Sequence record: MK327932.1
Direction: 5' to 3' (one strand)
From: Escherichia phage vB_EcoM_G2248
DNA length: 64,000 nt
Shown here: positions 3,932 through 58,968 of the stretch, piece after piece
Numbering within the stretch: position 1 is the first letter of the stretch
Layout of the letters: the number at the start of each line of letters is the position of its first letter
Position numbers and translations under genes: made by a program
Notes under the pieces: model-generated
The model's input: only the letters and a program-made list of their open reading frames with translations
Told to the model about the DNA's origin: nothing
Database searches by the model: none

Positions 3932-4168
3932 ATGATTAGCTTTAAACGTTTTTTGGTTGAGGCCGTTATTGACGGTTTTATGAGTAAGATTTATTCTTGT
4001 AATACTATCGAGGGATTAAATGAACTTGAGGCATATTATGAGAAGCGCAAGAAAGAAACAGAATTGAAACCTGCTGATGATATTTCGATCCGTGATGCCA
4101 TCGCTGGACGCCGTAAGCAACTGGAAGCGGACAACGAGCCGGAAGAGGAGCCGGAAGAGGATTTTTAA
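3932..4168 (+). CDS. uvsW.1: UvsW.1-like small acidic protein
   Basis: 78-aa ORF immediately after uvsW with acidic EPEE tail; synteny with T4 uvsW.1. Confidence 0.6.
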   Translation: MISFKRFLVEAVIDGFMSKIYSCNTIEGLNELEAYYEKRKKETELKPADDISIRDAIAGRRKQLEADNEPEEEPEEDF

Positions 4169-10087: not shown

Positions 10088-11145
10088 TGAAAATTAGTGT
10101 TATCAATGATGCCGTTGATAGCTTTAAAGCGGGGGTTAAAACCTCCGCTGGTTTTACCTCAAAAAATAAAGGGAAAACATTAACCGCTCAATTCCCCGCT
10201 GAACGTGCTAGCGGTAATGATTCTAGCGGTTATTATATCAACGACTTATATAATAATGGTCTGTTATTCACTGCATACGATTACACATCTCGTACTACTG
10301 GATCGTTGCGTGATTTCAGGAAAAAGAAAAATGTTGCTAGCGGTTTTGGCGGTAGCGTTAATATCGCTGGTTTTGATTTAAATTTGGGTGGGAGAAATGC
10401 TGCATTTGACCGAGAGGCAATTGCTAATATTCTTCTTCCTCGTAGTCAATCTGACGTTGACGCTGCCAGCCATAAGTTTAATGATGTTGGTGAATCTGTT
10501 ATTTCTCGCGGCGGTGGTACTTTAGGCGGTGCTCTTTCTAATATGGCATCTACTGCCGTTTTTGGTGGTATCGAAAGTATTACTGGTGGATACCTTGCCG
10601 ATCACGGTGAACAGATTTATAATACGGCGCGAAGCATGTATGCGGGTGCTGACGCACGAACGAAAAACTACGTATGGCATCTAACCCCACGTAGTATTGA
10701 AGACCTTCGCAATATTCTGATCATATACGAAACGTTTTTAGAGTTGTCTTATGGTTCTAGTGGTATTTCCAGCACCGCAAAAGAATTAAAAGCGGAAGTT
10801 GATGCGTGGTATAAAAATACACTATTGAGCAAATCCACTCCAGCCGAGGCAAAGAGAAATGATACGCTGTTTGAAGGGATCACCGATTTTCTATCAAACG
10901 TAATTACTGTATCTAACCCGACAATATGGATGATCTCTAACTTCGGCAAGCGTACATCGTTTGAAGGGCGTAGCGATGCATTTGGTCCCGCTCAGATCTC
11001 AAGTGTACGTCTGGACAAGTCGCCTGATGGTAAGTTTAATGGCCTTGCTATTTCTCCTAACTTGCCGAGTACCTTTGTTCTGGAAGTATCATTTAGAGAG
11101 ATCTTGACACTTTCCCGTGGTACTATATTTGGGAGTGCGGCATAA
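10087..11145 (+). CDS. 48: baseplate-tail tube junction protein gp48
   Basis: 352 aa, synteny 29-48-54. Confidence 0.85.
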   Translation: MKISVINDAVDSFKAGVKTSAGFTSKNKGKTLTAQFPAERASGNDSSGYYINDLYNNGLLFTAYDYTSRTTGSLRDFRKKKNVASGFGGSVNIAGFDLNLGGRNAAFDREAIANILLPRSQSDVDAASHKFNDVGESVISRGGGTLGGALSNMASTAVFGGIESITGGYLADHGEQIYNTARSMYAGADARTKNYVWHLTPRSIEDLRNILIIYETFLELSYGSSGISSTAKELKAEVDAWYKNTLLSKSTPAEAKRNDTLFEGITDFLSNVITVSNPTIWMISNFGKRTSFEGRSDAFGPAQISSVRLDKSPDGKFNGLAISPNLPSTFVLEVSFREILTLSRGTIFGSAA

Positions 11146-16108: not shown

Positions 16109-16137
16109 ATTATAGGGGATCGGTGACCCCCTGTCAA
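16109..16137 (-). promoter_or_regulatory. sigma70-type early promoter cassette (example)
   Basis: Minus strand TTGACA (16132-16137), 17-nt palindromic spacer GGGGGTCACCGATCCCC, TATAAT (16109-16114), then conserved leader with GGAGAA RBS. Confidence 0.7.
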
Positions 16138-17958: not shown

Positions 17959-18041
17959 TGTTTGATTCTCCTAAGTGGTATCTCGTCTTGATGGTTGCAT
18001 TGTAGGGGAGTTATCCTCCCCTGTCAACACTTTTTATAAAA

Positions 18042-18209: not shown

Positions 18210-18285
18210 TTTGATTCTCCTATTTCGTTTCGGTATGTGTGTAGTATAGGGGATCTCCCGATCCCCGTCAACAACTTTTTTAAAA

Positions 18286-21523: not shown

Positions 21524-21553
21524 ATTATAGGGGATCTCCCGATCCCCTGTCAA
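21524..21553 (-). promoter_or_regulatory. sigma70-type early promoter cassette (example)
   Basis: Minus strand TTGACA-GGGGATCGGGAGATCCCC-TATAAT, then leader ...GGAGAATCAAAA-ATG. Confidence 0.7.
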
Positions 21554-22875: not shown

Positions 22876-22948
22876 GTTTGATTCTCCTAGTTCGTTTCGG
22901 TATGTGTGTATTATAGGGGAGTTTAACCTCACCTGTCAACAACTTTTT

Positions 22949-23260
22949 TTAAAGTTTTTCCATGATAACGGTCATAATTACATCTTCTGCGCGAGCGGTC
23001 AGATTATCAGCGTCAGTATGTGGGCGGTTGGTTGTTACAGAGATAACACCGTTGCGCACTGGTTTGATATTGATATCAAGATGATCCGCGAAACGTTCGC
23101 CAGTTACAGAATGAATTTTGGTGTTAAATTCTTTTGCCAGTGCCTTGCGAACTTCACGAATCAGGATAGCGTTTTTCAGTTGGTTCTCCGCGCTCATGGT
23201 CTTCTGGGTGTTCATGGTTCCGTCGAAGTCAATCATTGGCAGCGTTACGATGTATTTCAT
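22949..23260 (-). CDS. hypothetical early protein (AKEFN family)
   Basis: Start moved to MKYIVTLP after the conserved leader; 103 aa; paralogue of 19398..19685. Confidence 0.5.
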   Translation of the reverse strand: MKYIVTLPMIDFDGTMNTQKTMSAENQLKNAILIREVRKALAKEFNTKIHSVTGERFADHLDINIKPVRNGVISVTTNRPHTDADNLTARAEDVIMTVIMEKL

Positions 23261-23289
23261 TTTTGATTCTCCGTTTAAGAAAGTGTGTT

Positions 23290-23369
23290 TCGTTTTGATG
23301 TGTGTAGTATAGGGGATACGTGATCCCCTTCGTTTTGATGTGTGTAGTATAGGGGATACGTGATCCCCT
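23290..23369. repeat. perfect tandem duplication (2 x 40 bp) of a promoter core
   Basis: TCGTTTTGATGTGTGTAGTATAGGGGATACGTGATCCCCT occurs twice back to back (23290-23329, 23330-23369). Confidence 0.85.
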
Positions 23370-23387
23370 GTCAACAACTTTTTTGAA

Positions 23388-23732
23388 TTATTTTTTCATG
23401 AGCTTAATGGCTTCTTCCATAGCCAGCACATTTCGATAGTTAGGGTATCGTGTTAGATCGTCATACATTCGCTTAAGGGTGGAAACTTCCTCAAACTCTG
23501 GGTTTTCTAGATATAGTTGAACAAATTGTTTCTCTACCATCTCGGCTTTTAGCTTGTCTGCTTGTTCCTGTTCATATGATTTCGTTGGACCCAACACCAA
23601 CAAAATGATAAAGGTGATCAACGGGCTAATGATCAATGATAGGATAACATAACCGATAACGCTACGGTTTAAACGGCTTGCGTACATGCCTACCAGGAAA
23701 ACAAAAAGGATATAGATAAACAGAAAGAACAT
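23388..23732 (-). CDS. small membrane protein (two predicted TM helices)
   Basis: Hydrophobic N-terminus MFFLFIYILFVFLVGMY ... ILSLIISPLITFIILLVLG. Confidence 0.5.
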   Translation of the reverse strand: MFFLFIYILFVFLVGMYASRLNRSVIGYVILSLIISPLITFIILLVLGPTKSYEQEQADKLKAEMVEKQFVQLYLENPEFEEVSTLKRMYDDLTRYPNYRNVLAMEEAIKLMKK

Positions 23733-32888: not shown

Positions 32889-34045
32889 AGATATTTCCCG
32901 AATCGGTTGTAGTCGTCGTCTGTTAAATCGGTATTAACCTGAGATACCAGATACATGATCTCTACTTCTTGCGCCGCGTTTTGAACTTCGTCAGAGTTTA
33001 ACCACTTACGCATCCACGGTAAAGGATGACGACGAACACTAAACGGGCTTTTCAGTCCGGCAGCACGCATACGGGAATCTGCCAGGTATTCTACATAGGT
33101 TTTCAGAATTTCCGGTGACAGGTTAGGAATTGCCCCCATTGCGAATAAGTGATCTACCCATTCTTTTTCTTGCTCGACAACATCCAGAAAGATTTTCGTT
33201 GCTTCGCCTTCAAGTTCTTCCGCAATCTGTTTCCACTCATCACCATCAGCCCCCGTTTGCCATTGACGAATAATGTATTGTGTGCCTTTTAAGTGAAGTT
33301 GTTCATCACGCGCAATAAATTTCATGATCTTCGCGTTACCTTCCAGTAAACCACGTTCGGCAAAGCTGAAAGTACATGCAAAGGACACATAAAAACGGAT
33401 TGCTTCCAGTGCATTTACGCAGTGTGCACACAGATAAATCGAAGCCATCAGATCTCGTTTTGTATCTTCAAAAAATCTTCTTGCATCATCTAATTCTGTC
33501 TGATCGTCTCGTTCTTCCCAATAGCGGAGATCTTCTTTTGCATTCTCATACTTACGAATCCAATAGAGAACATCATCATAATATTGCCCGATAGATTCCG
33601 CTCGCTTCATGATAGCAGGGTTATCGATGATCTGGTCGAACTCACTAGCCGGATCAATGAAACAGTTACGCATAATGTGTGTATAGCTTCGGCTATGAAT
33701 CGTTTCGCTGAATGTCCATGTTTGCAACCATGTATCAAGAGTCGGATCAGATACAATTGGACCAAATGCTGCGGACGGTGCGCGACCTTGAATAGAATCA
33801 AGTAATGTCTGATACTTCAAGTTTTCGGTAAAGAAACGCTTTTCAACGTCACCCATATTAAGATATTGAATACGGTCGGTTGCAAGTGAAATCTCTTCTG
33901 GACGCCAGAAAAATGACAATTGCTTTTCGATCAGTTCTTCAAATACTTGATGACGCTGAATATCATAGCGAGCGATACCCAACCCACTACCCAGAAACAT
34001 TGGTTCGTTCATAATATCAACATGTTCGCGGTTAAATACGCTCAT
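32885..34045 (-). CDS. nrdB: ribonucleotide reductase class Ia beta subunit
   Basis: 386 aa; diiron-carboxylate R2 features; uninterrupted ORF. Confidence 0.9.
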   Translation of the reverse strand: MSVFNREHVDIMNEPMFLGSGLGIARYDIQRHQVFEELIEKQLSFFWRPEEISLATDRIQYLNMGDVEKRFFTENLKYQTLLDSIQGRAPSAAFGPIVSDPTLDTWLQTWTFSETIHSRSYTHIMRNCFIDPASEFDQIIDNPAIMKRAESIGQYYDDVLYWIRKYENAKEDLRYWEERDDQTELDDARRFFEDTKRDLMASIYLCAHCVNALEAIRFYVSFACTFSFAERGLLEGNAKIMKFIARDEQLHLKGTQYIIRQWQTGADGDEWKQIAEELEGEATKIFLDVVEQEKEWVDHLFAMGAIPNLSPEILKTYVEYLADSRMRAAGLKSPFSVRRHPLPWMRKWLNSDEVQNAAQEVEIMYLVSQVNTDLTDDDYNRFGKYL

Positions 34046-34568: not shown

Positions 34569-34636
34569 AATAAAATCCTCACTTGTTTTTGATGGTTGTA
34601 TTATAGCGGGGATTTCTCCCCGCGTCAACACTTATT

Positions 34637-42760: not shown

Positions 42761-43708
42761 TTAGAACTCACCAATTTTCTGCAACATTTTAACTAACGCA
42801 TTTGTTACAAAATAGTTATAAATTTTACCGCGTGGTGCTGGTTTAGACTTTTCCCATGACTCCAGAATCTGAGTCTGAATATCATCTGGGATGTAATCGA
42901 AATCAATAAGTTCGCGGTTTTCGTCAAAGCGTCGTGATTCTTCCTCTGTCATCAAAGACTTTGGATCTTCGGCATCGAAAATTTGCTCTAACCATTTGGT
43001 CGCAACTGGTTTAGCTCGCTCCCCTTCCAGTCGAGAGATAATAAAATCACTACGACATTTGACAGAGGCTACACCGTCTTTTGCGTCACCCTTAACACAT
43101 TTTACCATAAGGTCTTTGTAAGGGCTACCATATTTGCATTTCTTCCATGCTTTCTGTACTGGCGCCCACTGTTTCACGTTTTTGTATTTGTGCAACTGTG
43201 TGTAGTCACCATCGCCGGAGTTGATCAGTACCTGGCGACCTTCTACAGAAAACTTTTTAGTTAATACAGCGATTATATCATCTGCTTCAACTTTGTCAAC
43301 CTTAATAACGTGATAAGGCATGTTCTCTTTAAACTCTTCGGTGATCTTATTGATCGCAGCAAAGATCATCTCCCAATCACGCGGATCTGCGTCTCGTTTT
43401 TCCTTACGGTTGCGTTTATAGTAAGGGGCGATATCACGTCGCCAGTAACCTTTGCTTGAATCAAAAGCAAGTACCGTAATAGGGTATTGCTCTTTGAATT
43501 TTGTCATATTATAACGCATGGTGTCAAGAATAAGATGACGGATCATACCTTCACTAATAAGGTCTTCCGGTTTAAAGGTATGCGAGATAGTAGCAATCAT
43601 AAGCTGAGACATATCAATCAAATGCACACCTTCCGGCAGTTTATCTTCTGGATCATCGAAGAAATCATTAAGTGTAGCGGTAGTTTTTGTAAACGGGTTA
43701 TACGTCAT
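42761..43708 (-). CDS. rnh: RNase H (FEN-1 family 5'-3' exonuclease)
   Basis: YWRRD, PYYKxNR, EADDIIAVL, SGDGDYTQLHKY, VKQW, C-terminal PRGKIY as in T4 RNase H. Confidence 0.9.
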   Translation of the reverse strand: MTYNPFTKTTATLNDFFDDPEDKLPEGVHLIDMSQLMIATISHTFKPEDLISEGMIRHLILDTMRYNMTKFKEQYPITVLAFDSSKGYWRRDIAPYYKRNRKEKRDADPRDWEMIFAAINKITEEFKENMPYHVIKVDKVEADDIIAVLTKKFSVEGRQVLINSGDGDYTQLHKYKNVKQWAPVQKAWKKCKYGSPYKDLMVKCVKGDAKDGVASVKCRSDFIISRLEGERAKPVATKWLEQIFDAEDPKSLMTEEESRRFDENRELIDFDYIPDDIQTQILESWEKSKPAPRGKIYNYFVTNALVKMLQKIGEF

Positions 43709-58898: not shown

Positions 58899-58968
58899 TT
58901 TGATTCTCCTTCGTTGTCTTGATGAGTTTAGTATAGGGGATCGCCGATCCCCTGTCAACAACTATTTT

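Follow-up and report, generated by a model that had tools for sequence, protein, structure and literature searches.

Arbiol et al. 2010 (PMC2839356) described the promoter-early stem-loops (PeSLs) of phages RB49 and phi1, and Comeau et al. 2014 (PMC4122927) extended the description. They are strong sigma70-type early promoters containing an AT-rich upstream tract and a stem-loop. They span the region from the stop codon of one gene to the Shine–Dalgarno (SD) sequence and ATG of an ORFan, cluster in hyperplastic regions, and allow genes to be shuffled through PeSL–PeSL recombination (PMC2839356, PMC4122927). Five positional subclasses of a single stem-loop are distinguished in these two papers, which make no mention of an internal duplication (PMC2839356, PMC4122927). 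Reporter data have been published for PeSL193/192, PeSL206/205 and the stem-loop of PeSL211/210; the last, inserted between a strong promoter and lacZ, reduced expression to a degree similar to that of the rrnB T1 terminator (PMC2839356). Cloned PeSL promoters became tolerable through point mutations in either the -35 or the -10 box (PMC2839356); since mutation of either box was enough, both boxes appear to be needed. ORFan210, the gene downstream of PeSL211/210, is one of two genes excised through their flanking PeSLs as mini-circles, in monomeric and dimeric form, in RB49 and phi1 (PMC2839356). The PeSL authors drew a comparison with the morons of lambdoid phages, which, like PeSL genes, are small accessory genes with their own promoter and terminator. 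The regulatory sequences of morons, however, are not conserved repeats that mediate exchange, and the comparison has no bearing on the duplication described here.

The window, that is, the whole stretch of 64,000 nucleotides analysed in this work, is by sequence similarity part of the genome of a Krischvirus (an RB49/JSE-like, T4-type coliphage). A 3-kb query around the site matched 58 phage records, all from RB49/JSE-like T4-type coliphages with 95–99% identity and classified in the genus Krischvirus, Straboviridae. A 24-kb query found no phage record identical throughout, the best match having 97% identity over 86% of the query. The genes on the minus strand follow the order DNA ligase gp30, an HNH protein, a 114-aa ORF, the spacer with the repeat, a 103-aa ORF and more small ORFs. 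The 114-aa ORF (23388-23732, minus strand), a predicted membrane protein of the unknown-function family phrog_25625, corresponds to RB49p211, and the 103-aa ORF (22949-23260, minus strand), from the unknown-function family phrog_7474, corresponds to RB49p210; they are called ORF211 and ORFan210 below. Pfam gave no match for either of these two proteins, and the sole Pfam match among the flanking proteins searched was HNH, for the gene next upstream of ORF211. Because these flanking genes are those of RB49p211 and RB49p210, the cassette between them is the orthologue of PeSL211/210, with putative promoter and terminator activity.

The cassette contains sigma70 boxes, an AT-rich tract (TAATTCAAAAAAGTTG) flanked by the stop codon of ORF211 (23388-23390) and the -35 box, a G-run/C-run stem-loop, and the SD and ATG of the downstream ORFan. 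Its setting is a hyperplastic part of a T4-type genome, and it is itself a repeated element with ~100 nt of conservation. The minus strand of the window has about eight cassettes of this kind (at 58958, 34628, 23374, 22939, 21553, 18271, 18027 and 16137). Each is composed of GTTGTTGACA, a G-run/C-run hairpin, TATAMT, ACACACAT..CGAAAC.., GGAGAATCAAA and an ATG, and the cassettes align mutually. In the seven others, the hairpin forms the spacer between consensus boxes (16109-16137, 17999-18027, 18243-18271, 21524-21553, 22910-22939, 34600-34628 and 58930-58958, all on the minus strand), and all seven are single-copy, with no internal duplication. One of them, PeSL210/209 (22876-22948, minus strand), recombines with PeSL211/210 when ORFan210 is excised; its TTGACA (22939-22934) and TATAAT (22915-22910) are separated by a spacer hairpin of 18 nt.

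Compared with PeSL211/210 of RB49 and phi1, the cassette described here is alike in locus, flanking genes, sequence and architecture, but its stem-loop, -10 box and start region are doubled in tandem, which places a second hairpin downstream of the promoter and inside the predicted transcript. The duplication is a new allele of a known element, not a new kind of system.

The duplicated cassette

The perfect 40-bp unit TCGTTTTGATGTGTGTAGTATAGGGGATACGTGATCCCCT (plus strand) occurs twice in direct succession, at 23290-23329 and 23330-23369, with 0 mismatches. TRF reported it at 23289-23369, with a period of 40, 2.0 copies, 100% matches, 0 indels and a score of 162, the highest in the 64-kb window, where the runner-up scored 59. 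The number of perfect 40-nt tandem repeats expected by chance in 64 kb, ~64000 x 4^-40, is effectively zero. The periodic stretch measures 81 nt, as T23289 is the same as the final base of the unit, and this leaves a 1-nt ambiguity (microhomology) at the junction. The repeat is located in the 127-nt intergenic space 5' of ORFan210, and each unit comprises the final base of the -35 box, the 17-nt spacer palindrome, the -10 box TATACT and 16 nt around the start site.

Read along the minus strand, the elements are the ORF211 stop codon, AATTCAAAAAAGTTG, TTGACA, GGGGATCACGTATCCCC, TATACT, ACACACATCAAAACGA, a second copy formed by (A)GGGGATCACGTATCCCC, TATACT and ACACACATCAAAACGA, then AACACACTTTCTTAAACGGAGAATCAAAA and the ATG. 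The AT-rich sequence AATTCAAAAAAGTTG, at 23375-23387, is an UP-like region conserved in relatives. The -35 hexamer TTGACA (23369-23374) is present once only, and the distal 40-nt copy (23330-23369) makes a complete promoter when joined with it. The distal stem-loop (23351-23369) has a 7-bp stem, AGGGGAT/ATCCCCT, and a 5-nt loop; its core GGGGATCACGTATCCCC is the 17-nt promoter spacer, which is followed by the distal -10 hexamer TATACT (23346-23351). The promoter scan called this combination, TTGACA-17-TATACT at 23374-23346 (minus strand), with 11/12 consensus matches. The predicted transcription start, from the standard sigma70 spacing between -10 and +1, is the A at 23339, 7 nt past the distal -10 box. 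The proximal copy (23290-23329) would therefore be inside the 5' leader of transcripts begun at the distal promoter, and its stem-loop (23311-23329), the second PeSL211/210 hairpin, is predicted at ~+11 to +29 of the ORFan210 mRNA. The proximal TATACT (23306-23311) has AACGAA at the -35 position (1/6 matches), with neither an UP region nor a TG extension. The proximal copy was not called by the promoter scan, whose sole call at the cassette was the distal promoter. The SD sequence of ORFan210, GGAG at 23269-23272 (minus strand), is conserved in all relatives, and the ATG is at 23260. The first-pass annotation had described a perfect 40-bp tandem duplication at 23290-23369, placed it within one promoter cassette upstream of the gene 22949-23260, and stated that it doubles the -10 element and the spacer palindrome. 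The sequence and TRF, the ORF list with its 127-nt spacer, and the called promoter agree with it on these three points. It did not identify the cassette as a PeSL.

The stem-loop GGGGATCACGTATCCCC folds with -10 kcal/mol as RNA (z-score -3.2) and with -6.1 kcal/mol as DNA, the proximal and distal copies being identical. When the 82-nt leader is folded, the hairpin again accounts for -10 kcal/mol and the whole leader has a z-score of -2.4. According to the folding, the two palindromes of the duplicated cassette are also able to pair with each other. Directly after the hairpin, the gene strand reads UAUACUACAC, with no U-tract, and the terminator scan made no minus-strand call, which means that the element fails the test for a canonical intrinsic terminator. 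In the antisense direction, the plus-strand junction at 23311-23339 is terminator-like, with a 7-bp hairpin followed by TCGTTTTGAT; it is 1 of 2 calls in 1.2 kb, where 0.8 would be expected, and we ascribe no function to it.

Occurrence among Krischvirus genomes

In the alignment, the cassettes of RB49, JSE and G37-3 show no difference from the window over 111–131 nt, apart from lacking one 40-nt unit; the RB49 cassette matches at 111/111 positions outside the 40-nt gap. Since there is zero divergence between the two copies, and none from the single copy of the relatives, the duplication is best regarded as recent, as the first-pass annotation had supposed. The comparison with related genomes that it had proposed as a check gave the same picture of a single ancestral copy. 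A 101-nt query across the repeat matched 57 phage records; in 55 of these, two overlapping pieces spanning only 61–62 bp of the record accounted for the full query, the pattern given by one copy; the cassette is thus single in 55/55 fully matching phage records. In GEC-3S, the PeSL211/210 locus carries a variant hairpin.

Exact-protein look-ups with ORFan210 and ORF211 in NCBI, ENA and Logan provided 20 further loci. The exact single-copy 48-mer was present in 13 of them, and the rest consisted of two with a chimeric PeSL and no ORFan210, one with a variant cassette, and four cut off inside the cassette; the duplication junction was found in 0/20. The intergenic distance between ORF211 and ORFan210 is 87–88 nt in the further contigs that cover the full spacer, versus 127 nt here. 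The 40-bp difference in length is a handy marker for this phage lineage.

Wider searches were also performed. A 45-mer across the junction was absent from 50,697 phage records and from complete E. coli genomes, and a junction 28-mer had no match in IMG/VR, JGI metagenomes or GTDB genomes. The single-copy 48-mer, used as a control, matched only ECD7 in IMG/VR and nothing in the metagenomes, so that the searches of those two collections have little power and the 101-nt BLAST against phage records is the informative control. The pattern CCCCTATAMT-N8-38-CCCCTATAMT had 18 matches in IMG/VR, located in giant-virus contigs, simple repeats and coding sequence, none of them in a Krischvirus-type PeSL. 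A TRF survey of 50 kb of RB49 and of two complete Krischvirus genomes gave no further perfect tandem repeat with a similar score; a diverged 45-nt x2 repeat, with 80% matches and a score of 117, was the only one in that survey to exceed 60.

Two other interpretations of the locus were considered and rejected. A VNTR-like locus does not fit with one copy in all 55 phage records and in the further assemblies covering the cassette, and two only here. Spans of 500 bp in JSE and RB49 had suggested that these phages have an additional gene flanked by PeSLs, but the spans were BLAST pieces joined to PeSL210/209, and the gene order is the same. A small length change beside the hairpin was observed in OZ035808, 'Krischvirus RB49' (L030 37971-38040), where a 1-nt insertion in the same cassette, CCCCTTATACT, gives an 18-nt promoter spacer.

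Origin of the duplication and its predicted effect

In the ancestral arrangement, represented by G37-3, JSE and RB49, the ends of the duplicated segment are TTGAC|A... and ...AACGA|A, with 1 nt in common, and the new junction joins ...AAAACGA to AGGGG.... A microhomology of 1 nt argues for an illegitimate event and not for a homologous PeSL x PeSL exchange. We consider it likely that the 40-bp duplication is genuine, recent and restricted to this genome, and that it stems from one illegitimate event inside PeSL211/210. The single nucleotide of homology is a poor substrate for simple slippage, a point against the reading we favour, and slipped-strand mispairing in its classical form was rejected, as the ancestral ends have no direct repeats of several nt. 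The first-pass annotation had taken the repeat as direct evidence that these cassettes undergo slippage or unequal recombination. What stands of this is that 40 nt were duplicated once; the homology-driven PeSL mechanism is not the route, given the 1-nt microhomology and two copies that are both pure PeSL211/210, and direct evidence for slippage or unequal recombination is not what the repeat provides. The duplication represents one isolated event rather than an established tendency of the cassettes.

Within the 1-nt ambiguity, one boundary of the unit falls on the outer base of the 7-bp stem. Owing to this coincidence, the likeliest routes by which one illegitimate event with 1 nt of junction homology would have produced the duplication are a template switch during replication or a break-and-join tied to the spacer hairpin. 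The coincidence itself is weak, with a ~1 in 10 chance in an 87-nt spacer, and as a clue to a hairpin-linked origin it is a lead only. Short tandem duplications near hairpins can arise through template switching in replication or slipped mispairing, as in the palindrome- and quasi-palindrome-associated mutagenesis known from T4 rII and E. coli. The present duplication is likewise short, perfect and direct, and one of its endpoints lies at the foot of a stable palindrome, but the classical cases use flanking direct repeats of several nt, instead of 1 nt. A literature search on tandem duplication and illegitimate recombination in T4 returned nothing usable. A bolder proposal, which we regard as clearly improbable, is that the duplication is the footprint of structure-specific processing at PeSL hairpins, and that the allele is a self-attenuated promoter kept because it lowers costly ORFan expression. 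If that were true, PeSL stem-loops would be hot spots of illegitimate as well as homologous rearrangement, possibly through the nuclease or recombinase on which the PeSL authors speculated.

The repeat could also have been created during assembly or finishing, either by a 40-nt overlap (k or k-1) that stayed untrimmed on closure and re-orientation of a permuted or circular contig or by hand-joining contigs that end in a PeSL, in which case the phage really has one copy. The perfect identity of the copies, the presence of exactly one such repeat in the window and its absence from every other genome or assembly are all consistent with such an error. PeSLs are, moreover, multi-copy, a 70-nt core being found at a second locus in many Krischvirus genomes; the short-k Logan contigs L040-L044 (SRR21977551, SRR13517628, SRR21977572, SRR35641394) end 31–54 nt upstream of the ORFan210 ATG, inside the PeSL; and in LF73P4 synteny changes exactly at PeSL211/210, perhaps through a mis-join. 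A period of 40 would, however, need k = 40 or 41, unlike the usual overlaps of SPAdes, Unicycler and MEGAHIT, which are 55, 77, 127 or 141. Assemblers also normally collapse short tandem repeats rather than create them. By our estimate, given the high coding density, a random circularisation point would fall wholly in an intergenic cassette in only a few percent of cases, whereas a viable real duplication is expected in just such a place, because adding 40 nt to a coding sequence would cause a frameshift. The 40-nt unit, finally, is strictly inside the 70-nt core shared by the relatives, 15 nt from each end; if this phage has a second locus like that of ECD7 and LF73P4, a naive join would have duplicated the first or last 40 nt of the core, not an internal 40-mer. 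We therefore judge an artefact to be unlikely, without dismissing it; if it were one, it would serve as a warning about closing assemblies at PeSL repeats.

A real duplication might instead have come from homologous recombination between PeSLs, by unequal crossing-over or by re-integration of an ORFan210 mini-circle followed by imprecise loss. The same cassettes are known to recombine in this way: ORFan210 mini-circles and their dimers occur in RB49 and phi1 (PMC2839356), ORFan210 is deleted, with chimeric PeSLs, in Whisky and in ERZ28576388 scaffold_34, and ORF211 is missing in ECD7 and GEC-3S. Such exchange, however, is driven by homology and takes place in register, and it results in one chimeric PeSL and in a gene being gained or lost, but never in a second, partial copy in tandem. 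Here no gene has been gained or lost, the join is out of register, both copies are 100% PeSL211/210 with no diagnostic bases of PeSL210/209, and the joined sequences ...AAAACGA and AGGGG... share only 1 nt, which makes this origin very improbable. On the functional side, the duplication could be an adaptive tandem promoter, in which both copies fire and transcription of ORFan210 is doubled. PeSL promoters are very strong (PMC2839356), and the proximal copy retains a good -10 box, TATACT, with its native start region and leader, but AACGAA with 1/6 matches takes the place of its -35 box, and it has no UP region, no TG extension and no scan call. The published cloning results imply that both the -35 and the -10 box are needed (PMC2839356). 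Assignment to a functional tandem promoter class was rejected on these features of the proximal copy, and a doubling of transcription seems most improbable.

If the duplication is real and arose by one illegitimate event, as we favour, the distal copy, with the UP region, -35 box, hairpin spacer and -10 box, would remain the sole real promoter, and the proximal copy, without a -35 box, would be transcribed as leader. The ORFan210 leader would grow from ~39 nt to ~79 nt and gain a hairpin of -10 kcal/mol, with an unchanged SD region, and read-through transcripts from ORF211 would meet two hairpins, not one. The predicted effect on ORFan210 and the genes after it is neutral to down-regulating. 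Attenuation is the simplest prediction, since the stem-loop strongly reduced downstream expression in the published reporter; the effect may be small, given that the gene-strand hairpin has no U-tract and the terminator scan was negative, and the two-copy allele may be neutral.

Taken alone, the finding is a minor one: a single small structural change in a cassette of RB49-like phages whose roles in regulation and recombination have already been described. It affects, however, the one PeSL with a stem-loop that has been tested as a terminator, which makes it a natural counterpart of the published construct of promoter, stem-loop and gene, and the two-copy allele could be used to gauge attenuation by the PeSL hairpin in its native context. 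It would also mean that a PeSL can change by an out-of-register, homology-independent event, besides the known homologous shuffling.

Other rearrangements at PeSL loci and minor variation

ORFan210 has been deleted naturally, and independently, in phage Whisky (MZ504878; L049, ~125 kb) and in ENA ERZ28576388 scaffold_34 (L046). In both, ORF211 is directly followed by ORF209 through a single chimeric PeSL (locus positions 930-1035, equivalent to 22876-23387 of the window); the crossover is located after the -10 box (ACACACAT) in Whisky and upstream of the hairpin in ERZ28576388 scaffold_34. These deletions look like genomic counterparts of the ORFan210 mini-circles (PMC2839356).

A second locus, ~80 kb away and upstream of a gene starting with MSNLSFAKVEISK, also carries this 70-nt PeSL core, either as AAAAAAGTTGTTGACAGGGGATCACGTATCCCC...CTTTCTTAA or as a one-hairpin variant, and in many Krischvirus records the 101-nt query found two places. 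The second-locus core is at 10713-10782 in ECD7 (L021, ~44.3 kb), 42972-43041 in RB49 (L025), 33429-33498 in LF73P4 (L027) and 20595-20663 in L032. This recurrence suggests that PeSLs are copied or homogenised between distant loci. In Krischvirus LF73P4 (OZ035795.1; L026 35573-37690 and L027 30813-33513), synteny with the window is lost precisely at PeSL211/210: after the ligase gene, the HNH gene, ORF211 and the PeSL comes the MSNLSF gene at ~83 kb, and ORFan210 with its downstream genes lies inverted at ~37 kb, behind the second locus's upstream flank. The break reflects either a genuine exchange between the two PeSL loci or sequence wrongly joined at the 70-nt repeat.

The gene on the other side of the cassette varies as well. 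ORF211 is missing in ECD7, GEC-3S and Makalu_001, where the HNH gene adjoins the PeSL upstream of ORFan210; in ECD7 (L023) and GEC-3S (L024) the absence is at locus positions 1570-1660, which correspond to 23388-23732 of the window. The presence or absence of ORF211 in these three phages is a further polymorphism bounded by a PeSL. In a gut-metagenome contig, ENA ERZ943789 k127_665432 (L035, 1082-1500), the ORF211 homologue was called with 56 aa and is followed by ~250 nt with no gene call, and it may be a frameshift or nonsense allele. Elsewhere in the window, at 4136-4161 (plus strand), there is a 12-nt x 2.2 tandem repeat, GAGCCGGAAGAG, which appears as GAGCCAGAAGAG in two other Krischvirus genomes scanned (L026 18478-18503 and L030 18587-18612), at seemingly corresponding positions; it probably belongs to a conserved gene and encodes repeats of Glu-Pro-Glu-Glu.
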